A stretch of 62,974 nucleotides of DNA, the filler included, from Kipferlia bialata (Eukaryota): the NCBI GenBank assembly GCA_003568945.1. It is 7 parts of 7 records of this genome, joined end to end, with 100 filler letters (N's around TTAATTAATTAA, not from the genome) between each part and the next. Parts side by side here need not be neighbours in the genome. Positions count along the whole stretch, not along the records: positions 33,090 to 44,009 come from BDIP01001333.1; 6 more parts are not named here. One strand, written 5' to 3'. Shown here one piece after another: positions 33,090-61,493 of this stretch; the stretch's first letter is position 1; every line of letters begins with the position of its first letter. The notes beneath the pieces were generated by a model. It saw nothing but the letters and a program-made list of their open reading frames with translations, was not told the DNA's origin and made no database searches. The position numbers were made by a program, and so were the translations under genes.

Positions 33090-36000
33090 CCCCGCTGGTG
33101 ACCGGGTTGCTGTACTGGTCGCCGATGTCAGCGGTCAGGGTGAGAGACTCCCCGGCAGGATGAGAGGTCAAACTGGTAGTTGTTCCGATCTCAGAATTAC
33201 TCCCGTCCTGTGCTGCTCCGTGTCCAACTGTGACAAGGGTTGCCACAGATGCATACTGGGTCCCAGATATACACAACTGCATGGTATAGTCATCGGTAGC
33301 TGTGACCTGAGAAGTCTCACCTCTGTACTCTAACGCTGCTACATCCCATAACAAAGCCACTGATGTCACTTCTACCATACTGCTGTCGAACACGCGCGCT
33401 TCTACATCGGACATGTCTCCAGATGGATCGTTGCAGGTATCGATGAGTTCACAGACAACTGATAAGGTATTATCAGGATCATGAGTCGACGGATAGGACG
33501 CAAAGGTGCTGTTGAGTACCGAAATGGGTGCACTCGTAACTAGGACAGTCCCAGATTCACTTATGGCTATGCCGTTCACGGCTAATTCGAGTGAGTATGC
33601 CCCTGCCACTGAAAACACAGTAGTGTGGGTATACTCCCCGGCAGATGTGTGTGTGAGGGTGTATGGACCACAGGAATCAGGCCCACTGGTAACAGAGACC
33701 ACTACTGAGGAGGCGTCAGTGACGGTCCCTCCAAAGTAGTCTGTCACATGCACTGTGAGTGTTCCTTCTGCGCACGCTTCGAGAGTGAGGTCCTCAACAT
33801 AAGTGCGAGACTCGGTCCCATCAGAATACGGAGCAGCAGAGTCCAGAAGTGTCACCTCTGTTTCTGTACATTCAATGGTAGATCCATTTACCTTGGTATT
33901 AGCAGTCTAACAATTGAAAACTTCACATTCTGAATTAAGAAACATTAAGATGTCTATATCAACTGTGATATCTTGAATGCGATTTCTGACAAAAATACTC
34001 ACCTCCATCATGACAAGTACAGTGCCCGGGTTGGAGAATAGGGGGTTACTGTCCAAGACCTCATACAGATAGGTGTCATCCGATACCTGAGCTAGATCTG
34101 ACGATCCAGTCTCAGTTGTGAGCCAACTGTCTTCCGACATCAGATACCGCACACTAGCCGAGGGGTCAGCAACGTCGGAGGAGTCTCTCACATGGAACTC
34201 CATGTTCCAGCTAGTGTTGGTGTATATGGATGGCCACCCGATCTGGTCCGAGTCGATGTAGCAGAAGGTTGGCTCACACGGCAGCACTGTGACTGCAATT
34301 GCAGTGCCAGGGAACAGCATTTGCTCGTCTTCCTCTATCTAGGGTGAATCCACAAATGTTTCTACCTCAATTCTTTGTGGTTTGTACTAAGATGCGTCAT
34401 GTGTATCACTAGACCCTTACCACAAATGCTAGGTACACCACACCGGCTGATGTGAACTCAGGCCAAGTTCCCAAGATGGAGCATCGGTACTGGGTGTCTT
34501 TGTCCTCCTCTTCTGTGGCATAGGTAGAGTACGACGTGAACGCCGCATCAGTGGAGACAGCTAGGTAAACTTCATAGCCCCCAGTCAAGTTCTTAGCCTC
34601 AGCTGTCCTTGGATACAGGTCAATGCTCCAGTCATTGCCCTTCACTACAGCATCAGGGTAACTTGGGTCGACCGACGCAAAGTAGCTGTTAATATCGCAA
34701 AAGTCGTCCTTTTCCAATACAGTGAGTGTGACTGCAGTATTGGATAGGGACACTCCGGCCACGTTGAGCACCAGAGAGTAGAGCCCAATTGTCCGGAACT
34801 CTTCCTCGACATCTTTGGCAGGGGTCGTAGTCGTGTAGTGCCCTGAGCCCTCATGGGTCATTGGTATAGAGAGTGACCCAGAGTGATCGTCAGGCACACT
34901 GGTGACTTCAATGTAAACTACACCACTAGTGACTGGGTTTCCATACTGATCAGCGACATCAGCGGTCAGAGTAAGATCGGTAGATGTTACGTGGGCGGTC
35001 AGATCGGTTCCCTCTATCAGTGAGTTCACTCCGTCGTGTGCCTCACCGACCCCAATTGTCAGCCACGCTGAGATCGAAGACCACTCTTCTCCGTCTACAG
35101 TAACAACGGCTATGTATGTTCCTGCTGTGTGGACATCAAGAGTCCCAAGGTGGTATCTGGACTCAGACTCATCCCAACTCAGATCAAGGGTAGTCTGTAA
35201 CTCATAACCAGCATTGTAAATGTTGACACCCACTCCAGTCTCACCAGCCACCCCGTTCCCACACGCGTCATTGATGTAAACAATCACATCCAAGACATCA
35301 TCTGGATCATGGAGTGCAGCAAACGACGCGATAGAGCTGTTGCCCTCGGACGGTGTTGACGCAGTCACTGTGGCAGAGGTGGTCACACCCATGTCCTCCC
35401 CATTGACTGCCAGACCCAGGGTGTAGATGCCCTCGACAGCAAACTCTGTGGCAAGGGTGGATGTCGTGTACTCACCGTCAGTCGTGTGCATGAGGGTGTA
35501 GGGGCCTTCTATTACAGGGCCGCTGTCTACAGACACGAGGACCGAGGCAGCATCAGAGATGGCCCCTCCGTGGTAGTCGGTGACATGGACAGTGAGTGTG
35601 GCCGAAGAACATGCAGCAAAGGAGAGTGCCTCAATGTATGAACGCGATGTCGATCTGTCAGCATAGGGGTCAGCGGGGTCAGGCAAGACCGTCAGGGCGA
35701 AGACGGAGTCCATATACACAACTGTGGCGGAGTTGCTCACCTGGTATATGAGGCACAATACTAGGCCTAGTAGTAGAATCAAAACTCCAAATGGAGCAGA
35801 GATACCCATGTGTATATACGCACTCACCCTGAATGCCAGGTACACCACACCAGCTGTTGCAAACTCGGGCCAAGTTCCTTGGATAGCACACCGGTACTGC
35901 TCTTTCTCTATCACCTCCGAAGTTGTGTAGGTGGCGTATGAGGCGAACGTCGGATCGATGGAGACTGCCAGGGTCAATACCTCTACAAACTGATCAGGAT

Positions 36001-37021
36001 CACCTACGCTGTCAGTACCACCAGTGACACTATATCAATGAGACACAGGAATTACTAAGCCCCATCGCTATATGCTATTCACTCTCTATACATCACTTCC
36101 ATCACAACTACCGAGAATAGCTGTTCTAGTGTTCGGTATAGAGTACCTTTGTTGGACACAGTGTACATGTCCAGATCCCAGTCAGTCCCTTTAAAGATGG
36201 CGTCAGGGAAGGAGCTGTCCTCTGAAGCAAAGTAGCTGTTAGCCCCGTTGAGATCATCGTCCTCTGTATCATCTGTGGAGTCTCCCTTCACCCGGACCCC
36301 CTCCATGACAACTCCATACACAGGCACAGGTGGGAGGGTCTCGTCAGCGGGATGACTGTCAGACATAGCAAGAGTGGTCGTGGTACTCTCATAGGAGACA
36401 CCGTCAACCTGCCATATTAGATATGTGTAACGGTACTGAGAAGAACATGTTGACTATGTTCACTCGCACAATACAATAACGTTTCATACAATAATAGCTG
36501 TAGTGTCGTAGTTTGCCCCACAAACGTTCGAACGTTTTGTTCTCTACAGTCACTTCTGTTCGGCATCTGTAAAGAGTAACTGTTGACCCTCCAGTGCTGT
36601 AGACTCGACCCACCTTCATCCTCAGACTCAGACCAGACCCATCAGGCACACATGGAAGTGGGGGAAGAGAACACCGGTAGACGTCATGGCCAACATATGT
36701 GCACCCCGTCTCACCTTGGGAGAGTCCCCAGCCTGTGGAGTACTGCACATACACTTCAGAGTGAGGCATGCCGTAACCATCGGTGTCTCGGATATGCAGG
36801 AGTATCTCACACACAGTGTCCCAAGCAGGTTGAGTGGACCACTCAAAGAAGCTGTGGGAGCTGCTAAATACGCATACCCCCACTGGCACTTCAACATCCC
36901 CTTGCAGAAAGGTGGCGTCCCATTTGTGCGAGGATGTGTTGGAGGAGGCCGACACAGTGCTGAGAGAGTAGATCAGTAGCAGAACTGCCAGCAGTCTCAC
37001 AATGAGGTGTCCCGTCCCCAT
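33090..37021 (-). CDS. Large secreted/surface protein with tandem Ig-like (filamin/Big-type) repeats, 3' end off contig
   Basis: Signal-peptide-like MGTGHLIVRLLAVLLLIYSLSTVSA; repeated acidic S/T-rich beta modules (TLTVHVTDYxGG...GPYTLxHT..GEYT; LTLTADxxDQYxNPVTSG; NSYFAS...PDA..KG.DW). Confidence 0.8.
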
Positions 37022-37434
37022 GTATCTGAGAATAGACTCCCCGCCGATGCCTGTTCTGTAGTCACACAACAACAGAAGCATCGTTGGTAGAGAGACAAGC
37101 AGACCCACTGTTGTGTCGTTTGGCAATGTGTACTGAGGGTATCTTTGTCCTTCCAGTCTAACAAACGGTTTCTGCAGTTGCGAGTTAACTTCACAGTTGT
37201 CTCCCAGTCTCAAGTTGAGACTCTTAATTTGACACCGTAGTGCCAATCAGAGTATTCTGTAGAGAGTAGAGCCATATACACTGCCAGTATTACAGTCTGG
37301 GAGGGAACATGATGTCTGGAGTACTATATGCGGTATGCACAATATATTCTAATCACAGTGCCGGAGGCGTCACCGAAATAGTAGGCCTCGAAACAATACA
37401 ATCACAGAAATAGAATGGATTCAGGCTGGATTTG

Positions 37435-39026
37435 CTATCGGTATGTGTCCAACCAAGAAAGTGATCCTTTCCAATACCGAATATCCACCGACATTATTGG
37501 CAAGCGATTGAGTCTGTCCTCTCTCCATCACCTGAATCCATCTCTCCACCTCTATCTTCCCCGGCCCCCTGTTCCAATGTGAACAGAGCAGTGATGGGCC
37601 TCAAGCAGGTGACATGGGCTGCAAACCTACGTGTCACACATCGGTCTATATCTATGGTACCAAGAGATTATGCTACACTAGATATACCAATATAAATGTA
37701 TATATATACATACATATATATATATACACACACACACACACATACATATATACCTATGAGGAGGGTGTCTGAGTGACCCGATGGCACTGGCTACGGCCAA
37801 TAGCCAGTCGGGGGTCAGACAGTAGTCGACAGCTAGGGGTCAGGGGAGTCACATCCTGATAGATACTCACACACTATTATCTCCTCGGGGCACTGCACGA
37901 CACCTGTTCGATATTACTAGGCTGACGCTAGGCTAACACTTACCTTCTGCAAAAACAGTAAACAGGAAAAGGGACAGCTGAACGAGCACAAACCACTGGA
38001 ATATGACCCAGGCGTCCTTTGTTTTGCCCCACAGCAGTATGGTGTCCGCCTGCCATCTGGAGGTGAGGAGACACATGTATAGCTGGGGAGACACATGTAT
38101 ATATATGAGGAGACACATGTATATGTGAGTAGTTGTATGTATATATGAGTAGTCATATGTATATATGAGGGGACACATGTACATATGAGAAGACACATGT
38201 ATATATGAGTAGTCTTATGTCTAGGTGGTGGGGTAAGCTACTATCTGAGCGACACGTACCTCAGAAGCCAGGCTGAGGGGGCTGTGATCAGTTTCTCCAG
38301 ACAGAAGACACTGCAGCTGACGGCGCTGAGTCTCCTCCAGTAGAGAGCGGCCTGAGCACGCCGGGCCCCCTGGGTCTGAGGGTGAGGACTACAACTACGG
38401 ACATACCCTTGTAGAATCGTATTCCCTAGATACCCATAGGACAACAGAGGCCACAGTGCTTATGTTTTGTAATCACATCAACCCTACATACCCTACTGGA
38501 GCACTCGTAGTACTTAAGGGCCCATCTGATCAGGATAAACGTCATCCCCGAATAGAAATAGTTTTGAGCTGTGGTAAGGGGCTGTGAGGTTGAACATAGA
38601 GGTGATACACACACAGAGAGAGGTTGGATCAAGCCATGTCTTAGGTAGAGCCACCTGGAGTACAGAATGTGCATGACGGGTCGACCCCCCCGGTACTGTC
38701 TGTATAGATAGCAGTCCAGGTACGGTCCATGAACGCAAACAGTCCCACCCCAAGTGTTAGATTCGCCACAGCGAGAATGGAACAGAGACGCAACACAGAC
38801 CTACGACCCTGAGAGTCAACGAGAGGAAGATGATTGATGAGGGACGAACATGTACGTGAGACTGACACCTTGAGCACGCCCACCTTGTCTGTCACTAGTC
38901 CCCCTGACCCTACACCTGACCCTACCCCTCCAGTCCCAGTCACAGAGGCCAGCCACACGCCCACCGCAGCACCCTCTAGCAGGTAGGACATATGGGGGAA
39001 CACAGCAAAGTAGATGCCAGCGATCC
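37435..39026 (-). CDS. Multi-pass membrane protein, 3' exons
   Basis: Hydrophobic exons (IAGIYFAVFPHMSYLLEGAAVGVWLASV; LCSILAVANLTLGVGLFAF; AWVIFQWFVLVQLSLFLFTVF), probable stop at 37435-37437. Confidence 0.55.
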
Positions 39027-39122
39027 TGGAGTGAGAAAGTTGAAACCGCCCAGGCATAGAGTCGGGTATACATGTGTGTGTGTGAGTGGGGGGGGGGGGG
39101 GGGGGGGGGGGGTGGCCAGTAC

Positions 39123-39231
39123 CTCTCAATCTCCTTCAGGTTGTCGGTCCCAAACGTCCTGGGGCCTACGTCCTCCAGCTTCTGCAGGTGGGACAGAGCC
39201 CTCTCCTCGCTGAAGGAGGCGTCATAGTTCC
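39123..39231 (-). CDS. M28 metallopeptidase (ERMP1-like) N-terminal exon
   Basis: NYDASFSEERALSHLQKLEDVGPRTFGTDNLKEIE matches the F-S-E-E-R-A..HL..L..IGPR..G pattern at the start of ER metallopeptidase M28 domains. Confidence 0.75.
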
Positions 39232-39982
39232 CTAGGGTAAGGTAGGGGTCAGTGGTCAACAAAGAGTGAAGGCAAGGGGGGGGGGGGGGGGAGGGGGGGG
39301 GGGGGGGGGGGGGCTGAAGAGGGGGGTCNNNNNNNNNNNNNNNNNNNNNNNNNNNNNNNNNNNNNNNNNNNNNNNNNNNNNNNNNNNNNNNNNNNNNNNN
39401 NNNNNNNNNNNNNNNNNNNNNNNNNNNNNNNNNNNNNNNNNNNNNNNNNNNNNNNNNNNNNNNNNNNNNNNNNNNNNNNNNNNNNNNNNNNNNNNNNNNN
39501 NNNNNNNNNNNNNNNNNNNNNNNNNNNNNNNNNNNNNNNNNNNNNNNNNNNNNNNNNNNNNNNNNNNNNNNNNNNNNNNNNNNNNNNNNNNNNNNNNNNN
39601 NNNNNNNNNNNNNNNNNNNNNNNNNNNNNNNNNNNNNNNNNNNNNNNNNNNNNNNNNNNNNNNNNNNNNNNNNNNNNNTTGCCCCTAGCTCTAAGTAGTT
39701 ATCGTCTCCCCCCCCCTCCACACACGTTTCCGTCTCTCTCTGTCTCTCTTTACTTGAAGCCTCACCCACAGGTCCTCAGTGTCCTGCACCCACACAGACA
39801 CATATATTCTTATATATTTATAAATGAATACTATATATATTGTTGGGTGATGGGTGTGTGTACGGGTATCAATACATGATGTATTATCTTACCCGTGAGG
39901 TCCGGCATTCATATATAAATATATATTCAAATATGGATGTGATATATACAATAGTACTTGTATTGTATCATCTTACCCTTAG

Positions 39983-40310
39983 GTCCTTACCACCCTCCGA
40001 CACGACAACGACAACATGCGTGCACTGCTGGAGGGCTGGATGGCAGAGCAGGTATGGATATGGTATATATATACTATTATATCACACACATATATATATA
40101 TATATATATATTATATTTATTTATATTTAGATAGATATAAATATAGTATACATACACCTGTGTGCACTGCTGGAGGGCTGGATGGCAGAGCAGGTATACT
40201 ATGAATACTAATGATGTATACTCTATTATATATGTATTATACATATTGTGTATAATGTACATGTATATACCTGCGTGCACTGCTGGAGGGCTGGATGGCA
40301 GAGCAGGTAT

Positions 40311-40357
<47 letters not shown>

Positions 40358-43300
40358 CATATGTATATGTAGATTGATATAGATATAGATAGATTGATTG
40401 ATGGAGGGCTGGATGGCAGAGCAGGTATAGAGTGCTCATTAGATATACACTACTATATGTATAAAAATAGATATAGATATATAGATCTGTAGATCTGTAG
40501 ATAGATCGATAGATAGATAGTATACATGTATCTACGTGCACTGCTGGAGGGCTGGATGGCAGAGCAGGTATGGATGTATATGTATATATTAATATATATC
40601 TATATATACCTATATATATCTATATATATAGATAAATATAGATATAGATTGATTGATTGATGGAGGGCTGGATGGCAGAGCAGGTATACTATGAATACTA
40701 ATGAGTTGGACGGTAGAGAGCAGATATGTATATAGTATTACTTCTTACACATATATTGTGTGCATAACCTCTCTCTCTACATATCTATGTACATACTGAG
40801 TATCAGCACCATATGTATATATACATACTCCTGATATGTTATGTTTTGAGTGGTATGATATTTTATGCATACTATATACCATGTCTACCTGTATACTATA
40901 CGTCATTCTTATATATGTGTATATGTATATATAGTATCCTAAATGAATATATCTATAATAATCTCTATAGAGTATATAGTCTCTACTCCATATACCTCCT
41001 CTCTATTTCTCTCTCTCTCACTATCCCTCACTTCAATTCCCTCTCACCACTAGGGTGACGTGAACTCTGCCGTTGCCCAGGAGATCCTGGCCCTGCGGCA
41101 GTGTATGAGCAGTGTTAAGGGAGACCTCCAGTACCTGCAGGACAGCACCAACAGGTTGGGTCACAGTATGATATACTATATATGATATATATGATATACA
41201 TATGCTTCTTATAGTGCACAGTAAAGTAGGAGGGTGGTTGTTGATTATTGATATTGGAAGGCATGTGATAAGGGGAATGACCTGTGTTTGAGTTTGTGTG
41301 TGTGAGGGGGGGGGTATGTCTATATCAGCATTAATTGTTATGGTAGAGACTATAGCTTATATTTAGTCTGTGTCCTCACCCCAGGTGCATAGACGACATC
41401 GACACCCTGCAGAGAGGCATGTCTACCCTCCTTCACGGGTACTCAGCTGAGATGGAGACCCTGCCCCCTGATGTGTGCAAGCTGGTGGCCAGGTGCCTCC
41501 TGCAGGAGCAGTGCCTGAGGAGTGAGTTTGGTGCCCACTTCCGCACTGACTTCTATGTCCCCATCCGCACTCTGGCTGACCTCGAGAGCGACTACCTCCG
41601 GCAGCTGCGTGCCGGGGCAGCTAGACACCCCCTGCTTGTGATGCTGGCTGACATGGGCATGGGCAAGACATGGAGTGCCGCCCACCTCGCCCTCTCCTGC
41701 TGCCAGGAGGACAGCCGGCACAACGTGGTGCCCTTCTTTGTGCTACTGAGGGGGGGACTGGAGAGTGCCATGACAGCATACTTCAGCAAGGCCCACCCCT
41801 CAGAGGTCGCTGAGAGGTGCCGCAGCCTGCACAGGAGTGGCAAGACTGCCCTGCTGGTACTGGATGGCCTAGATGAGATGGGAGACAGGGACACGAGGGA
41901 TGCGGTGGTGTGGATCACACAGTTCCTACAGGTGAGTACCGCGGTCGAACTGATACTAGCTATTTACCTAATCCATTATACAATGAGCAATCATCTTTAC
42001 CCTCTAACACTAGGCTGTGCGTGGTGAGGCGCTCCTCTTTGTGTCGTGCCGTGGCTCTGTGTGGGGGCTCAGCCCTGCGGTGTCAGGAGCCAGGGTGACC
42101 CTTGAGGACTACATGTACAGGACAGGGACCGAAACAGGCCACCTTGACTGCTCCATCGAGCTCACCCACCTCTCCCCCACCGAGCAGAGAGCTGCTCTAG
42201 TCACGTATGGCCTGGGCGATGTGAGCCTCCCCCCCTCTCTCCTTGAGATGTGTCGCAAGCCCTTCCTGCTCAGGCTGGTGGCTGAGTACGTGGAGTCTAC
42301 TGGCGTGGTGCCTGACCCCAGTGACGTCAGGTCCTTCATGCCAGTCTTCTACGACCCCACATACGCATCTAGGGACACTGTCCTATATAGGATGGGCCTC
42401 AACCAGGTAAGACTATACTGTACCCAGTTCTATACACTTCTGGGTTAATATGTCCTCTGACCCCAGCTGAGAGTCAAGCGCTACTTGGTACCCTTCCTGA
42501 CACAGCTGGGGAGTGCTGCTGGGAGTATAGTGGAGACCGCCCTCCCCACTGCCTGGATCCATGATATGCACTGGGCAGGAGTCACATCCTGTGGACTGAT
42601 TGATGTGAGAGAGGGCTTTGCCTGTAACGAGCTAGGCATTGTGCATGTCTACCAGCCCTTTGTGCAACATATGATGGATGTTCATGGGATAGGGGATGGG
42701 AGCACCGATATTGTGAAGGGGACTGCCTACAGTTGGCTGCCTTCACTGACACAGAGCGAGGTTGAGGAGAGGGAGAGGGAGAGGGAGAGGGAGAGGGAGA
42801 GAGAGGAGGCAGCTCTGCTAGAGAGACAGAGAGAGGCAGCTCGTGTCTACGCTAAGAAAGAGGCTCGTCTCCAGTCGGAGAGAGCGAGAGTGGCCCGTCT
42901 TAGTGCGGAAAGGCGGGAGAGAGAGCTCCAGCAGAAGAAAGAGAGAGACAGAGAGCAGGAGAAGAGGGAGAGAGTTGAGAGGGAGCAGCAAGAGAAGAGA
43001 GAGAGAGAGGAGAGGGAGCGTGAGGCGGCACTTCTGACGAGGCAGAGGAGGGCAGAAGCAGAGAGACAGCAGAGAGAGAGGGAAGCAGAGAGGAAGAGGC
43101 AGGCCGCACAGGCCAGTGCAGACAAGGCGAAGAGAGGGGCACACTCACAACTTTCTGTACGTGTGTGTTTCCTTCCTATTCTCGTCACCCCTCCCCACCC
43201 CCCACGTCTTGGTGGAGACTCTCTCTCGCATTTACAGTGTAAATCATCATTGCTCTGTTATATCTATGACAATGTTTTAGTTGTATGCTTACTCAGGTGC

Positions 43301-44009
43301 TCGAGGACCTCCAGCAGTACACTTGGGGTCAGAGAGTGATATACTGCATTGAGAACAGAAAGAAATCGGTACGTTATGCATGTATACTGAAATAGAAATG
43401 AATATAAATGATTACATTTTGCATTAATATGAAATAGAATTGATTTGAGAATAGAGCAGCAAAGGTACATTTTGCATGTACTGGCGGCGTGGTTGTTACG
43501 CAATTGGCTTACATACTTCGTACATGGGACCATTGTTTAACCCCATACATTCTAGTTTCAAGTATAGTTGTTGATTCTTTTGGTTGTGTTTGATTCTTCT
43601 AAGAATACCTCCAGCTTCTCATTATTGTCAAGTATAGTTCTCTTTCAGACTCAACCTCGTATAGTCATTTACATATTCATATACTCACAATTCTTAACAC
43701 TACTCTATGCATGTACTAGAACAAGTATAGTATATTGTGTAATGGAAGCATGATCGCATGTTATCTAGTTTCATTGTCACTCGATTGTTTCAGTCCATCG
43801 TGTCACTGTATTCATAGTACTTCCACTCGTACAACTCTTCTAATCTCGCTGTTTCTTTACCCCAACCACATGTGAATCGAGATACTTTTGATAAATTGCA
43901 CACAATATTGCTTCTTCTCATGTATTCACCCAGCTGGACCTTCGTTTCCAGATGATTGGCCCCGACGGTGCCAGGGCCCTTGCCCAGGCCCTGCCCTCTC
44001 TGACCAGTC
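39983..44009 (+). CDS. NLR-like protein: coiled coil - NACHT NTPase - charged helix - LRR (both ends missing)
   Basis: Walker A ADMGMGKT (41647-41670), Walker B LLVLDGLDE (41851-41877), sensor-1 FVSCR, IELTHLSPTEQ, MCRKPFLLRLVA; E/R-rich helix 42760-43140; exon 43934-44009 LDLRFQMIGPDGARALAQALPSLTS is an RI-type LRR. Confidence 0.85.
40021..40690 (+). repeat. Exon-echo array: TGCACTGCTGGAGGGCTGGATGGCAGAGCAG|GTAT, true exon end plus five copies
   Basis: Copies near 40021 (true exon), 40163, 40277, 40402, 40537 and 40661, separated by (TA)n-rich spacers. Confidence 0.9.
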
Positions 44010-44109: not shown

Positions 44110-47100
44110 TCTCTCTATTAGGGCCACACCAGCGCAAACCGTGCCCGACCACCCCCCTCCCCCCTCCCCCTACGGTACCACCCCAGTCTCCACATCCCAC
44201 CAGTCCATAGATGAACAGGCGGTGTTGGGTGCCGTCATCAGTGCCGTACACGCCTGCAGCTTCGTGCCCCAGTATCTCTGGGTGGCACACCCGAATATAT
44301 ATATGAATAGGAAGGGGCACGGGAGTGTGTCATTCGATGGGAGGGGCATCGTCAGGCAGACCCTCATGTCGATAGCACTCATCCGGCTGCTAGGTGCTGT
44401 GTACCATGCCCTCCCCCCCCATCACGACATACGGGGTGCCATCAGGTCAGCTCTGGTGTACCTGCACGTGTCTCTGACCTGTGATGTATCACTGTCTCTC
44501 GCCTCTGTCTCCTGTGACACCCACAGTGCACACCGGGCAGCCCAGGAGTCAGGCAGGTCTCTCCCCCGCCCCGTGCTATCCTTGGTGGGGCAGTGTGCCA
44601 GGGCAGTACTGGGGGAGCTGCAGACTCTGCTGGGACGGAACCGCAGTGACACCCTGTCCTATCTGGTGGAGACCTCTCTGATCGTCCTGCCCAGGACCCT
44701 TGACCACCTCCCCAGGGGCCGGGTGTCTGTGCTAGACGTCAGCCAGTGCCTGCGCCACGTATCCCGGTCTCTGCTGTGTATGAGTCTGACGCAGGAGCCA
44801 GGCACCCCTTCGTCTGCGGTGCATCAGGACCTACAGCTGGTGAGGTGGTACATGAAGCAGGTGTGTATGCCGGATGGAGCCACAGCGGTGCAGGGCGACA
44901 CACCCATGGGAAGAGGGTCTGGTACTGGTACTTCGGAGGATGACACGGAGGGGCCCTTCACTGTGGCCTGTAAGACTGTGAGCCACAGCCTAACAGCTGC
45001 TCTCAGCCTCATCCTATCACTCCACCGGCCTTTGCGGCAGCAGTATACAACCGTAGAGAAGTGCAATGAGGTATACACTCGGGGCGAGACTCTCATTTCT
45101 GTCTGTGCGCCTGTTGGGGTGTCTCTGCCGGGTCTGATACTGCCTCTGCTGCACCCCTCCTTCTGCCCCCTCTCCGCCCTGGGTCAGTACTGTGCCTCCT
45201 ACATGGACTTCTCCTATGATGCGTCGATGGTCAGTGCCACAGGGCTGGTGGTGGGACATGTGGAAGAGTGGGAGGGGAGGTGGCAAGCTCATGTGGGCGG
45301 TACAGTGGGCGGGGGCGGGGTTGCTCCCGTGCCGTTTCTGCTCCGGAGTAGTGACCTTGCAACTCAGACTGGGTACACCCCTTCCTCTCTCCTCACGCTC
45401 ATTGCCTCTGTGCTCAAGGCTGACTATGTGGTCAACAAGGCTCTGGAGACCAGCTCAACCCCCCTGGGCGACTGTCTGTGTGTGCTGGGCTCCCCCTCAC
45501 ACAGTATCCCCAGGGTCCACCCCTCTATGCACCTAGAAGTCACTCGGCACACAGGCAGACAGGGGGCACCTGGGGGAGAGAGAGCACACGAAGGGGACAG
45601 CCCTGTCCTCCCCCCCCCTCTCAAGCAGATCAGGTCTATTCTACCCCTCGTGCGTCGCCTGGGCCTGTCTGACACATACAACCTCAGGACAGTTCCCCAT
45701 ACCTCTGGGCTGCCGGGTAAGGTTGTACTAGCAAAGCTCAAGGGGCAGAGGGACAACGACCCACACGCCACTGCCTCCTCGGCCTATGCTTTCAGCCTGT
45801 GGAGCCTGTCACTGGCAGCGGGGTACCTCTTTGTAGCCCAGCAAAGGCAGGAGGAAGAGTCCGGCCAGCGGCCCCGCCCAACCAAGCCTGACATAGAACT
45901 ACCGGCGATGCTGCCCAAGATGATAGTGAATGCCGTCCTGAAAGAGATGGGGAAAGAGGCCCCTGGCGTGTGCGTCAAGTACAGTCAGTCTGTGCTGTGT
46001 GCATGTCTGTCGTGCTGTGGCATGTGGGGCAGTCTGGAGGCGTGTCAGAAGGAGGAAGACAGCCTCGTCTCCTACCTGCCCATCCTCTCAGGCATATTCA
46101 GCCAAGCACACAACGCTGTCCCCCTAGTGGCTGGCCTTAGCATCAAGGTGTGTGGGTCTTCGCCTCCCCCAGCCTCCCTGGTGAGCCTTGCCAGTGCCCT
46201 CCACCTCTGCAGGAACTATCTGGTGTCGGTGTGGCCCCAGGACATGTGTGCCCAGTCTGGCGGCTCTCCTGTTAGGCCGCCACCCCCTGGTGTCTTCTCA
46301 ATAGTGTATGCCACTCTGGTGTGCTTAGGTGCCGACGCACCCTCCTCCCCCTCTTCCCCAATGCCACCAGTAGGCAACCCTCATGGTACCAGAGGTAGTC
46401 TCATCCACCGGTGTCTGGACCTGGTTACTGCCTATGCAAAGAGCATACCGACTCAGGAGGTGGAAGGAGGGACAGAGGCTCCCTTTGTGGGTCCTGTGAG
46501 GGGAAAGGTCAACACCCGTGTGAGGACATGTATGTGTGACATGCTTCTGAGTCTGTGTGACGTGTATGAGGTGGGCATGTCTGTGATGCGTGGGGTGCCG
46601 GCCTGTAATCGGCCTGCATACCGTGAGGATTTCCTCCTCCAGTGCTGGCCTGTACTGTTCTCCCTGCGCCTGTGTATACATAGCATCCTGGACTACAGTC
46701 AGGGACAGGAGGATGAGACATACACCCCCAGGGTCATGGCTAGACTGGCGGGGGTGGCCGCACTCTCTGCCCCTCTGTGGGGGTCCAACAGCTATGACCA
46801 GGCAGTGCAGTCCGCACGGCACCACAGTGCTGGGCTGAGGTCGGGGGCCGACCTTGTGGTGCCAGAGTACAGCACCTGTGAGGGGGTCAGCAGCGTGTGT
46901 TATGCTGCCAGTATGCTCTACTCCAGTCTCTACTCCAGTCTCCGGTCTGTTCCTCTGCAGCTGCATACAGACCTCTGCCTGTGCGGCGCCGTACAGGTGC
47001 TGCTAGGAGTGACCCTGGGTGTACACAGGCAGGGTGAGGGGGTGGGCAGCAGACGGCTCGTGAGGCCCCACCTGGCCAGCCCCCTCCTCTCCTCGCTGGC

Positions 47101-49667
47101 TAGTCTAAGCTTCATACCCACCCTGGGTCCGGAGGCCAGGGCTGAGGAGGTTGTCGGGGTGTTTGTATCTCTAGTCTCTAGGCTAGGCAGGGTGGACGAC
47201 ATCTCCCTCAGAGACGAGGCCCAGGGCACCCTCCTGCACTGCTGTACAGCGATGGAGACGGAGTACACGGGCAGAGAGGCCCAGACCCGGGGTACCAACC
47301 AGGGCTACATCATAGCAGAGCAGAGACAGGTGCTCAGAGCTCTAGAGGCTGTCCTGATATCAGGGTTTCACGCTAAGAAGAGGCGGGGGGGCTACGATAT
47401 GGGGGGGTGCATACTGGGGCCAAGTGACTCTGAGACTGAGGCCGACCGAAGGGCCGCGTCTGCCCTGCTCCATGGGCTGCTGGGTGAGCCTATGCCCCAG
47501 TCGCCCCCCACCCACACCGCATATGGCTCCAGATCGCCTGACATCGATCTCGACTCCTCGTCTAGCGTGTCCTTAGAGGTGTACTCCCTGGGACTCTCTG
47601 CCTGTTCGTGTGTGTGCGCCTCTGTATTGTCTAAGCCCTTTGCATGTGAGGCTGCTGACCTCGTGTCTCTCCTAGCGGCTCCCATCAGGCGGGAGGGCCA
47701 GAGTCTTCTGGCAGAGTGTACTACTGACGCAGGGTCCCTTCTAAGGGGGAGCCTCAGGCCTCGCCCCTCCGAGGGCGACCCCAGTATGGCGGCATCCCCT
47801 AGGGTTATAGAGCCAGACAGAGGTGTCAGAGGCAGAGTGCTCTCACAGACCGTAGCCTCCACCCCCCTTCTAGGCACCCTGGCCCTCCTCTCCCTCGGCC
47901 TAACTAAGACCACCAGTACTGCCACCAGAAAGGTGTGTGAAGCCCAGCTGTATGTGGTGTCCAGGCTGTGTCGCGCTGTGTCTGGGGGTGTTGTGCTGGA
48001 CACCTCTTCTAGACTGGTGTCGAGACAGTCCAACACACTCGTGTCCTCTGGGGGTGCCACCCCTCTAACCTCCACCCCTGCCCTTTCCGTGGCCTGTCTG
48101 GTATATGCCTGCAGGTACCTGGCTGACGTGTCCACCGTATACCGTCTCTCCTCTGGGTACGGCAGGGGTCTGGACTCTGTGGTGCCTGTCCCCCAGTGGC
48201 TATGCACCCAACTGGAGGAGGGCGGCATGGACCAGGCAGACACCCTGCCCGACCTCTCTTGCTTGTCTGACGGCACTGACCTCTTCGACAGGGCCAGCAA
48301 CCAGCGCTGCCAGCCCCTCTCCGACATCAGCCTGCTCAAGCGGTGGTACCACCTCACCGTCACCTCTGTGGGGGAGAGAACGTGGCCCATAGGCACCCAT
48401 GGGAACAGGGGCTTTGTCCAGACAGATATGTCAGGTGGGTCTGGGAGATGCGGTGTCAGTGTTACTGTATTCGGTGCTGTTACGTGTGGTGTTATATATT
48501 GTGTGTTGTGTTCTTCAGCTACTTCAATCATATCTAGTCTCTCTATTATTATTATGCGTTGGTGTAGCCAACCCTGACCGTCAGCGGTAGCCCGTGCCCA
48601 CATATCTGCCGTTTCGTCCTGTCTGTGTGGTCTGTCCACCATGAGACAGGAGGTGTGCGGCAGGGGCCAGGCAGAGCCCGCCAAGGTAGCCGCCAGACTG
48701 TCTCTGGTAGGTGCTGTGTCCGTGCTCTATGCCCTTGTGGAGACACAGCCCCTGCGGAGGGGGTCCCTGTATGGCACTCCTGTCCCTGCCCCTGTGTGTG
48801 CCTCTAGCCAGCTGGAGGAGGTTGGAGATATGGAAGTTAGGGACACGGCCCCCTCTGACACAGCACAGAGGGGTGGGCTCTACGACAGTAGTAGGTTCAC
48901 CCGAGACTCCGTTGTCAAGGGGCGCCGGGACTCCCTTGCCTCAGAGGTGGTTAAGGCAGGGGGGTATGCATCCATGGGTGTGGAGACAGACCCGTCCCCT
49001 ACCCCTCTCATCGTGTTGCCCATGTATGGGGGCCACTCATGTACGCAGGAGTATTATCGGAGTTGTATTCTCTTTGTCTTTGTGCTGTCCTGCCCCCCCC
49101 CCCCCTCTCCCTCTCTCTCCCCCTCTCTGACCCCAGACTCCCTCCCTGCACGGCATATCCTGACCCCCTCCTCAGAGGAGACGCTGGCTGGGATGAGTGT
49201 GCCCCCAGAGACAGGTAGGATGTGTGATTGTACATGTGTTGTATATCAGTATTCACCAATGTGGAAGAATTGAGATTGTATCTACTGGTGAATGAGAGTC
49301 AACGCGATTGCATTTTATGTGGCTATCTCTCCCTTTCTCCCTCTGTCTCTCTCTCATGCCAGCTGAGGAGAGGGCCGCCGATGTGTTGCGCCTCTCTGTG
49401 TCTGTAGCACCTGGTGGGGACAGGCAGCGGGGTGGGTACATGGTGTTGTTCAAGGGGGCAGTGGGCAGGGACTGTATGTTGCTAGCGGCACGGGAGATTG
49501 TTGAGTGTCTGCAGGTGCTACAGCGGTGCGAGCCCGGTTCAGAGCCTAGGATTCGGGGCCTTGTCGTCGATGTACTACAGACGTTCAGTAACGCCCATTC
49601 TAGGTCATGCGACTCTGATCGACAGACAGTGACAAAGCTTCTACACACAATATCCCAGATGAGATAG
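44110..49667 (+). CDS. Very large hypothetical protein (>1400 aa in one exon), possibly helical-repeat
   Basis: Open frame from the contig edge to about 48430, then further GT-AG exons ending TKLLHTISQMR*. Leu-rich helical segments, no recognised motif. Confidence 0.75.
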
Positions 49668-60678: not shown

Positions 60679-60916
60679 TAGTAAAGGGTGAGACATGGCA
60701 CCCATCATCCTGGGGTTAAGGTGGGCAAGGGTATAGAAGCGGAAAACATATACTCATGGAATAGAGAGAGGGGGGGGGGGGGGGGGGGGGGAGGGGGGCC
60801 CTCTTTTCCCNNNNNNNNNNNNNNNNNNNNNNNNNNNNNNNNNNNNNNNNNNNNTTAATTAATTAANNNNNNNNNNNNNNNNNNNNNNNNNNNNNNNNNN
60901 NNNNNNNNNNAGGCCA

Positions 60917-60952
<36 letters not shown>

Positions 60953-60959
60953 CTCCTAC

Positions 60960-61493
60960 CTCGAGGTGGGGGAGTGACGGGAGACCCTCGAATGACTGCA
61001 CTGCGTTGTGGCTCAGCATTAGTCTGCGCAGCCTAGGGAACAGCCGGGTAAAGTGGAGGGAGGTGACCTCGTTGCACCTGAGGTCCAGCACAGCGAGGGA
61101 GGGGAGAGACACCCTGGGGTGGAAGGTGCCGAGGCTGTTGTCGTGGGCATATATATGCCGCACCCCCTCGTAGGCACCCTGCCTCCCTACCCTCTGATCC
61201 AAGGCAGACTGCAACCCGGCATCACCCAAGCTGAGGTTGGACACATCCACCACACTGTGCCCAGAGTCCCACGTCTCCCCCTCTCCCCTATCCCCTCGGC
61301 CACCTCGGTCTCTGGGTACGTCTCCTGTGCGTGTTGGCCTCTGGTAGTGGGGGTCTGCGTATCGCTCACCCTGCCACATACTGGTATCCACTGGGTCCTA
61401 GGCCCGTGCAGACCAGGATCAGACAGGGGACACTGGAGGAGGCAGAGCCCTTACTGTAGCAGAGTGTCTCTTCAGTGATAGGGCTTCAATCAT
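60960..61493 (-). CDS. Leucine-rich repeat protein (SDS22-like LRRs, possibly AIR9-like), 5' part
   Basis: ATG 61493, short intron, then VRHIYAHDNSL, LAVLDLRCNEVTSL, LRRLMLSHNAVQSFEGLPSLPHLE. Confidence 0.8.

Follow-up and report, generated by a model that had tools for sequence, protein, structure and literature searches.

An NLR-like STAND NTPase gene of Kipferlia bialata and its relatives in Asgard archaea

Introduction

NACHT-type NTPases, whose signature is a Walker B motif of the form D[GAS]hDE, have, according to the accessible part of one survey, passed repeatedly from prokaryotes to eukaryotes and expanded there, with bacteria as the named donors (Kibby; 10.1101/2022.07.19.500537). 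Systems of the NLR (nucleotide-binding, leucine-rich repeat) and NACHT types are also reported from Asgard archaea, together with a tentative tree node joining Asgard and eukaryotic NACHTs, in the available portion of a second study (Leao et al. 2024, PMC11291487), and NLR-like NACHT-ankyrin clusters are mentioned in that of a third (10.64898/2026.10.28.762692). Protist NACHTs are likewise on record, with 263 rows in Table S3 of a cell-death survey of 67 protists, which has no Kipferlia row in any family (PMC7539657). The present work concerns a gene of the free-living metamonad Kipferlia bialata that encodes a predicted NTPase of the STAND (signal transduction ATPases that have numerous domains) class followed by leucine-rich repeats (LRRs). 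The gene sits at the end of the record occupying positions 33090–44009 (BDIP01001333.1) of a window of 62,974 nucleotides from assembly GCA_003568945.1, the window being the whole stretch of DNA analysed, in which separate records are joined by N-linker-N spacers.

Protist NACHTs and Asgard NLR-like genes are already known; what is notable here is the Asgard kinship of a eukaryotic family, the swapping of its C-terminal tails and an unnamed candidate effector. In the full-text literature searched, the family, its N-terminal domain and its Asgard link are undescribed, most subscription papers and some supplements lying beyond that search; members may be listed in Table S1 of Kibby, among the clades tabulated in 10.64898/2026.01.04.697583 or the clusters tabulated in 10.64898/2026.10.28.762692, or in Supplementary Fig. 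2A of PMC11291487. The Asgard link appears to be new, since the transfers named by Kibby are bacterial (the word "Asgard" occurs 0 times in the accessible text) and the link in the available portion of PMC11291487 is a tentative tree node. The metamonad thereby gains a candidate sensor repertoire that the 67-protist survey does not record. Furthermore, the tie between one eukaryote and Asgard archaea now takes the form of a concrete family and spans the N-terminal domain, coiled coil and NTPase; an Asgard input to eukaryotic immune receptors thereby becomes testable.

Gene model and domain organization

On sequence grounds, the NTPase–LRR gene is confirmed as a real gene: the splice model has seven exons and six GT-AG introns with matching phases, and comprises 649 codons with 0 stops. 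A preliminary description of this DNA had pieced together a coiled coil, the motifs ADMGMGKT, LLVLDGLDE, VSCR and KPFLLRLV, an E/R-rich helix and an RI-type LRR, all of which fall in frame within this one model. The spliced protein consists of a coiled coil (residues 1–84), an NTPase core (85–443), an E/R-rich stretch (466–595), a 24-residue linker and one LRR unit. Its features are given below, with family members numbered P0001 onwards.

39329–39678, no strand: scaffold gap of 350 N, the likely site of the missing N-terminal hairpin exon or exons (presumed placement)
39983–40051, plus strand: exon 1 as assembled, residues 1–23, in which the coiled coil begins; its first base follows an acceptor, and it lacks a start codon
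40030–40685, plus strand: six near-copies of the exon-1 3' end and donor, 24–35 bases each, five of them within intron 1
41054–41154, plus strand: exon 2, coiled coil; the donor after 41154 preserves the frame
41385–41931, plus strand: exon 3, end of the coiled coil, Walker A (41647–41670) and Walker B DGLDE (41851–41877)
42014–42406, plus strand: exon 4, VSCR with the sensor-1 Arg (42041–42052), helical domain 1 KPFLLRLV with the conserved Pro (42257–42280), and an RMG motif (domain labels drawn from the P0002 model and general STAND anatomy)
42467–43156, plus strand: exon 5, of which the part up to about 42685 is a predicted winged-helix domain; the E/R-rich spacer follows (42752–43141) and is predicted to be a single long helix
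43297–43368, plus strand: exon 6, 72 nt, the 24-residue linker ahead of the LRR, with phase-0 AG/GT sites
43934–44008 and beyond, plus strand: exon 7, cut, the first RI-type LRR unit; the record stops at 44009

The true gene start is missing from the assembly because exon 1 opens at an acceptor. Exon 1 aligns to the paralogues P0002, P0003 and P0008, and its start coincides with that of P0003 and P0007, both partial paralogues; the intron at this point therefore appears to be conserved, with the upstream exon probably lying in the 350-N gap. An alternative donor for exon 2 was rejected, as the resulting splice contains 24 stops. The copies of the exon-1 end start at 40030, 40172, 40285, 40403, 40546 and 40662 with AT-rich spacing, and may represent alternative donors, a minisatellite or an artefact of the assembly. 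The exon-1 acceptor region is itself partly duplicated upstream of 39983, at 39772 and about 39900, and one of these copies resembles the start of P0003.

The closest guide to the 3' part of the gene is P0001 (KIPB_008108), which is 60% identical to the gene's core over 431 amino acids and 67% identical to exon 3. In the splice model the 72-nt exon 6, which the preliminary description did not mention, lies between exon 5 and the LRR exon. Exon 6 alone aligns to P0001 residues 509–532, and exons 6 and 7 align as a single block to residues 509–555 (55% over 49 amino acids, E 4e-9), while the LRR of exon 7 is 60% identical to the LRR_6 array of P0007 over 25 amino acids. NTPase and LRR occur together in P0001, P0007, P0011 and P0012, which are gene predictions and not transcripts. 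Since the phases of exons 6 and 7 agree, both exons are collinear with P0001, and paralogues are predicted to carry both parts in one protein, there is good, indirect support for assigning the LRR exons to the NTPase gene. RNA run X1 covered 3 of 30 bins, all in the repetitive LRR unit (at high depth and with a further unit joined), and runs X2 and X3 covered 0, so that the coverage is no evidence either way on the exon joins. Only one LRR unit is assembled before the record stops, at 44009, and gives way to a linker of 44 N, a 12-base spacer and 44 N.

E and R account for 68 of the 130 residues in the E/R-rich stretch between NTPase and LRR. This spacer had been called atypical, a view that can no longer be held: it occurs in 10 of 89 family members, including a MORN paralogue and archaeal relatives, and is a recurrent option that is not peculiar to this gene. 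Its equivalent in P0002 is modelled as one helix (residues 584–690, about 105 residues) following the winged helix, and P0001 has merely about 70 residues between winged helix and LRR. The charge pattern of a single alpha-helix is weak, with an i+4 excess at p 0.01 for residues 485–595 and p 0.17 for 466–595; i+1 alternation dominates, in part from a GA microsatellite.

The family in Kipferlia and in Asgard archaea

Word-based protein searches overlooked nearly all archaeal relatives; one gave four hits, all from K. bialata, and another returned P0024 plus unrelated LRR proteins. A family profile built from five paralogue cores and run over 1.84 billion representative proteins gave 117 hits at E≤1e-10. 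Fourteen of these are named K. bialata (P0001–P0005, P0007–P0014 and P0053), and several carry the UniRef label "NACHT domain-containing protein". A paralogue count had been proposed earlier as a check, and it comes to at least 15 with the present gene, a minimum because paralogues were drawn from protein databases; no protein identical to the gene's model was returned by the word-based searches.

Organisms were looked up for 16 of the 103 non-Kipferlia hits. Eight of the 16 come with a named organism, in every case an Asgard archaeon (Promethearchaeota, Promethearchaeia, Lokiarchaeota/Lokiarchaeia and Sigynarchaeum/Sigynarchaeota); among the named hits there is no eukaryote other than Kipferlia. 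Hits lacking an organism name that are in the tree fall within Asgard-anchored clades, and the only named distant hit is from Kitasatospora (E 9e-9). In addition, among the 541 pattern matches listed in a scan of prokaryotic genomes, one strong locus (E 6e-21) belongs to an uncultured archaeon, and five bacterial loci are weak. The complete layout, down to a charged spacer and LRRs, is found in the archaeal protein, whose alignment with P0002 starts at the N-terminus and covers 623 columns (E 8e-37). In the phylum of this archaeon 22 of 301 sampled genomes match the family; full-length actin, an Asgard trait, is present in 5/5 tested genomes and the profilin marker in 1/5. By class, the family occurs in 16/161, 13/87, 1/83 (a divergent match) and 1/1 genomes. 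Names within its clade identify the first class as Lokiarchaeia, and the third is likely Heimdallarchaeia, because the Snf7 protein of its genome G055 is much closer to human CHMP1B than that of G001 (1e-18 versus 2e-6); comparison of Snf7 with solved structures gave no class names. The closest relatives detected for the Kipferlia family are thus Asgard archaea. A VIT-vWA gene faces the STAND gene in convergent orientation in two related Asgard genomes (L046:1291-3183 and L048:993-2861), and loci L045 and L050 have unannotated neighbours of similar size.

The C-terminal tails differ from member to member. Among the 14 non-fragment Kipferlia proteins, the present one included, there are five LRR, two MORN, four ARM and three RhoGEF-type DH-PH (Dbl homology–pleckstrin homology) tails, the calls for P0008 (ARM, to P0009/P0010) and P0004 (RhoGEF-type) being made by BLAST, and the LRR is accordingly one of four interchangeable tails. 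Tail type changes at least five times on the Kipferlia tree, in which the present gene falls beside P0001 and P0005, the latter with a MORN tail, and P0007 is joined by three ARM proteins. Monophyly of the LRR-bearing members is rejected (approximately unbiased test, p-AU 0.001). The RhoGEF tails are borne by P0013, P0014 and P0004, of which the first two have altered Walker B and sensor-1 residues; these three paralogues may serve as signalling scaffolds or as integrated decoys. In a scan of 41 non-Kipferlia proteins, the tails include LRR (14), HEAT (4), FHA (4), WD40 (1) and TPR alone (1). The LRRs of Asgard members are of the LRR_8 type versus LRR_6 in Kipferlia, which argues that the NTPase–LRR fusion arose separately in the two and adds one more independent origin of this design. 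In the prediction for P0012 an NTPase–LRR protein is combined with an RNA polymerase I A49-like segment, either as a true fusion or as a merged gene model. Among the entries listed in the searchable supplements of PMC11291487, those for Kipferlia are a viperin and an argonaute hit (file 4), which hint at a wider prokaryote-like defence set.

The preliminary description overlooked an N-terminal domain shared across the family, which lies outside the assembled sequence. Ahead of the coiled coil, full-length members carry first an amphipathic helix of basic character, next a helical hairpin that is Gly/Ala-rich and uncharged, and then a small bundle; a 19-residue Kyte–Doolittle window of at least 1.6 is found in 48 of 82 N-termini versus 13 of 82 cores. 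A profile built on the N-termini of six Kipferlia proteins, which lie outside the region used for the core searches, matches archaeal proteins down to E 2e-15, and 14 of its 15 best non-Kipferlia hits fall in one Lokiarchaeia-type clade (P0088 is absent from the tree). The domain is thus common to Kipferlia and Asgard archaea and closest in Lokiarchaeia; its presence in the present gene is assumed from the paralogues. A Pfam scan of 28 N-termini gave no coherent family, with no CARD, PYD or BIR among the families listed; the domain had no usable atlas hit, and its sequence hits were just coiled-coil and apolipoprotein-like. A model of P0008 residues 1–207 (predicted local distance difference test, pLDDT, 82.5; predicted template-modelling score, pTM, 0.54) had no Foldseek match at E≤0.001 and a best VIA match at Z 6.8 that was confined to the coiled coil and hardly covered the hairpin part. 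These absent family and fold matches show neither a new fold nor a lack of kinship; the unnamed domain is a candidate new effector. In one Asgard member (P0055, L040:4657-8622) a long extra N-terminal region with weak DUF11 and adaptor-complex mu-subunit hits precedes the hairpin domain.

The NTPase

The gene's protein has 14 of the 14 scored conserved sites, including Walker A, Walker B, the sensor-1 Arg and the helical-domain-1 Pro. The Walker A Lys is kept in 109/109 non-Kipferlia members and in 12/14 Kipferlia members, and the non-Kipferlia Walker B has D-G in 108/109 and the final E in 105/109, while motifs are degenerate in 5/14 Kipferlia proteins. A pattern for the conserved winged-helix His motif of NACHTs is found in 0/104 family members, but in just 3/28 distant NACHT-like controls.

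The fold was taken from the paralogue P0002, which is 41% identical to the gene's model over 588 amino acids. Its model (94 sequences; pLDDT 81.5, pTM 0.76) shows a nucleotide-binding domain, helical domain 1 (HD1) and a winged helix. It matches NLR, apoptosome and resistosome structures: Foldseek finds resistosomes at the top, together with CED-4, Apaf-1, NLRP3/7, Avs4 and Orc/Cdc6, and VIA-align places 2qen best (Z 15.5, root-mean-square deviation 4.5, 282 residues aligned), with NAIP/NLRC4 8fvu next (14.7, 4.5, 317 aligned), then SSO1545 (Z 14.6), Avs5 (Z 14.1) and NOD2 (Z 11.3). On this modelling, the assignment of the NTPase to the STAND fold is secure.

Profile searches, proposed earlier as a check on the NACHT call, gave a divided answer. 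Exon 3 alone scores 24.1 bits (E 3.5e-5) against Pfam NACHT (PF05729), below the gathering cut-off of 26.7, and its best Pfam hit is NPHP3_N, just above its cut-off (25.4 versus 24.8 bits). P0001 is likewise below the NACHT cut-off (17.5 bits), and P0013 (32.8), P0014 (36.4), P0025 (32.4) and P0052 (34.1) are above it, P0052 additionally passing nSTAND_NTPase5. Pfam is mixed and the fold does not discriminate, and NACHT membership is considered likely because the gene's Walker B, DGLDE, fits the D[GAS]hDE signature.

Origin of the family

Trees were computed on subsets of 152, 74, 40, 32 and 18 rows of 160 cores, the supports of the 40-row quick tree being from the Shimodaira–Hasegawa-like approximate likelihood-ratio test (SH-aLRT) only. 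In the quick tree the Kipferlia members form one clade (SH-aLRT 100), and Kipferlia together with the clades lokiA and lokiB is parted from other Asgard members by a long branch (SH-aLRT 100). The archaeal names of the nearest non-Kipferlia relatives could suggest archaeal contamination of the assembly. This is excluded for practical purposes by the six GT-AG introns and by the eukaryote-type RhoGEF and RI-type LRR tails, where Asgard LRRs are instead of the LRR_8 type; moreover, the paralogues lie on separate records and the 14 Kipferlia rows, gene included, form one clade at 100/100 versus four archaeal rows.

It is reasonably probable that the family reached Kipferlia by lateral transfer from a Lokiarchaeon and subsequently gained introns and expanded there. 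Transfer is favoured because of the N-terminal affinity, the rarity in the likely Heimdallarchaeia and the lack of any other named eukaryote. Kipferlia and Lokiarchaeia both inhabit anoxic sediment. Vertical inheritance from the Asgard ancestor of eukaryotes, with survival only in Kipferlia or unsampled kin, is the less likely course. It would demand loss in every other sampled eukaryote, and it sits poorly with an N-terminal domain specifically nearest one Lokiarchaeia-type clade, with the split of Kipferlia, lokiA and lokiB from other Asgard members, and with the single divergent match in 83 likely Heimdallarchaeia genomes. The rooting leaves it standing all the same: a tree with Kipferlia nested with Lokiarchaeia (p-AU 0.612) and one with Kipferlia outside all Asgard (p-AU 0.348) both survive, and distant hits used as root attach at two different points. 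The long Kipferlia stem (0.75) and the deep divergence among its members also speak for vertical descent, as do eukaryotic NACHT groups sharing Asgard ancestry in the available portion of PMC11291487.

Proposed mechanism and alternatives

As a whole, the gene is best explained as a STAND switch with a predicted LRR tail, an intracellular sensor of non-self whose oligomer would bring the N-terminal hairpin onto a membrane, an explanation for which belief and doubt are about balanced. By analogy with STAND biology, the resting state would be a closed, ADP-bound monomer; a ligand at the LRR, held out on the charged helix, would cause exchange of ADP for ATP and assembly of a ring. Such a ligand-gated, oligomerizing sensor switch is likely. 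The ligand may be an invader-derived or a guarded host protein, as tail swapping and patchy distribution would suggest; an anti-invader role of the family could go either way. The clustered N-termini would then insert into the membrane and permeabilize it, as resistosomes and HeLo domains do, an idea prompted by the order of a basic amphipathic helix and, after it, a Gly/Ala hairpin that is uncharged. A pore-like output is doubtful, and the hairpin may otherwise just anchor the complex.

In Kipferlia the N-terminal domain, coiled coil and NTPase are constant and the tails swapped, and the layout in Asgard archaea is equal. The most far-reaching account is an undescribed, Asgard-born NLR-like class with a new membrane-piercing N-terminal effector, which entered eukaryotes from Asgard archaea and was rebuilt in Kipferlia into a diversified innate-immune repertoire of LRR, ARM, MORN and RhoGEF-decoy sensors. 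In its entirety this is speculative and rather unlikely; if true, the NLR design would have arisen independently from an archaeal and not a bacterial source, and a metamonad would possess a cell-autonomous immune system.

Several observations, beside the second surviving root, weigh against an immune, membrane-acting sensor. The Asgard genes are solitary amid mostly metabolic neighbours: a defence-type neighbour (HepT-like, McrBC) lies within about 4 kb at 2 of 20 Asgard loci as a raw count, and no conserved partner gene was found across the 20. PADLOC, run on 10 proteins, matched no Avs or NLR model. The RhoGEF-type tails on three paralogues, two with altered motifs, fit ordinary signalling, and the hairpin domain is apparently replaced by the A49-like segment in predicted P0012. 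In the gene itself, exon 5 left unspliced reads through to a stop near 43339 without the LRR, and the N-termini of paralogues found no match in the window upstream of exon 1, the best, unrelated, hit being at E 0.02.

The last two points bear on whether the present copy is truncated or decaying, either without its N-terminal domain or, with the LRR exons outside the transcript, as a sensor-less paralogue. The five extra exon-1-end copies in intron 1, as a local rearrangement, and the lack of an identical protein in the word-based searches would agree with this. Such decay is nevertheless improbable given 649 stop-free codons, six canonical introns and catalytic motifs that are all intact, a linker and LRR collinear with P0001, a short end branch (0.25) and a 350-N gap directly upstream.

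Non-immune STANDs exist, NPHP3 and TEP1 among them, and repeated tail swapping is typical of conflict systems. A membrane-anchored, ATP-gated scaffold, in which the hairpin tethers and the tails recruit trafficking, cytoskeletal or signalling partners, is a second alternative that we would call possible yet unlikely. The RhoGEF (DH) and PH tails of P0013 and P0014, the degenerate motifs in Kipferlia proteins, the 18 of 20 Asgard loci without a defence neighbourhood and the NPHP3_N hit of exon 3 are in its favour. A housekeeping role predicts conservation, yet about 1 in 10 Asgard genomes match, no further eukaryote is among the named hits and the tails have been swapped repeatedly, which argues for a sensor. 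The interspersion of defence and non-defence STAND clades, reported in the available portion of bioRxiv 10.64898/2026.01.04.697583, would suit the scaffold.

Other features of the window

Across the scaffold gap, at 38819–39328 on the minus strand, lies a short coding stretch pointing away from the NLR-like gene; it has no Pfam hit and resembles the N-terminus of an M28/ERMP1-type peptidase. On the same record, 33091–36453 (minus strand) contains extended frames whose Ig-like hits are weak (Invasin_D3, E 8e-7; YtkA), a repetitive surface protein. Beyond the record end, an open frame of 1488 amino acids at 44111–48574 (plus strand) has no Pfam match; it was considered as a neighbour of the gene and rejected, as the record linker separates the two and places it in the next record. 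A further LRR gene fragment (LRR_4, LRR_8) is found on a different record at 60912–61397 (minus strand).

Comparison with known systems

The archaeal MNS-type STAND ATPases PAB2304 (2qen) and SSO1545 (2fna), together with Avs5, are the tied best structural matches by the Z-scores given above. They differ in having only about 10–11% identity, and the archaeal structures lack a hairpin domain and repeat tails. Bacterial NLR-related NACHT proteins, in the accessible part of their description, share the tripartite layout, the D[GAS]hDE motif and accessory domains of the LRR, HEAT, TPR, WD40, FHA and MORN types (10.1101/2022.07.19.500537), whereas the N-terminal domain of the Kipferlia and Asgard proteins fits no Pfam family convincingly. 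For the Asgard NLR systems of PMC11291487, the available portion names no family, domain or eukaryote that could be matched to the Kipferlia family.

Plant coiled-coil NLR resistosomes (ZAR1, Sr35, NRC) and fungal HeLo/HET NLRs are alike in how the protein is proposed to work, with a helical, membrane-acting N-terminus, a STAND module and a repeat sensor, and fungal NLRs also swap their repeat sensors. The resistosomes differ in using NB-ARC, the present family being likely NACHT, and the P0008 N-terminal model, its hairpin part barely covered, gave no match to the resistosome coiled coil or HeLo.

Animal NLRs (NAIP/NLRC4, NLRP3, NOD2) share the STAND fold, the D[GAS]hDE Walker B and the C-terminal RI-type LRR, the last as predicted for the present gene. 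They differ in two respects: the full-length Kipferlia paralogues have the hairpin domain instead of CARD, PYD or BIR, and where animal NLRs continue from the winged helix into helical domain 2 (HD2), P0002 and the present gene have one long charged helix. The family profile found no NLR chain at E≤5 among solved-structure sequences. The LRR fusion appears to be independent of that in animal NLRs, since the closest named relatives are Asgard. Of the original proposal of a NACHT and LRR protein in a metamonad, a STAND NTPase with an RI-type LRR therefore stands, and the likeness to an animal-type NLR falls away with the absent death-fold and HD2 and the Asgard kin. The gene, as predicted, has the architecture of an NLR and would work like one, and it belongs outside the animal NLR family.

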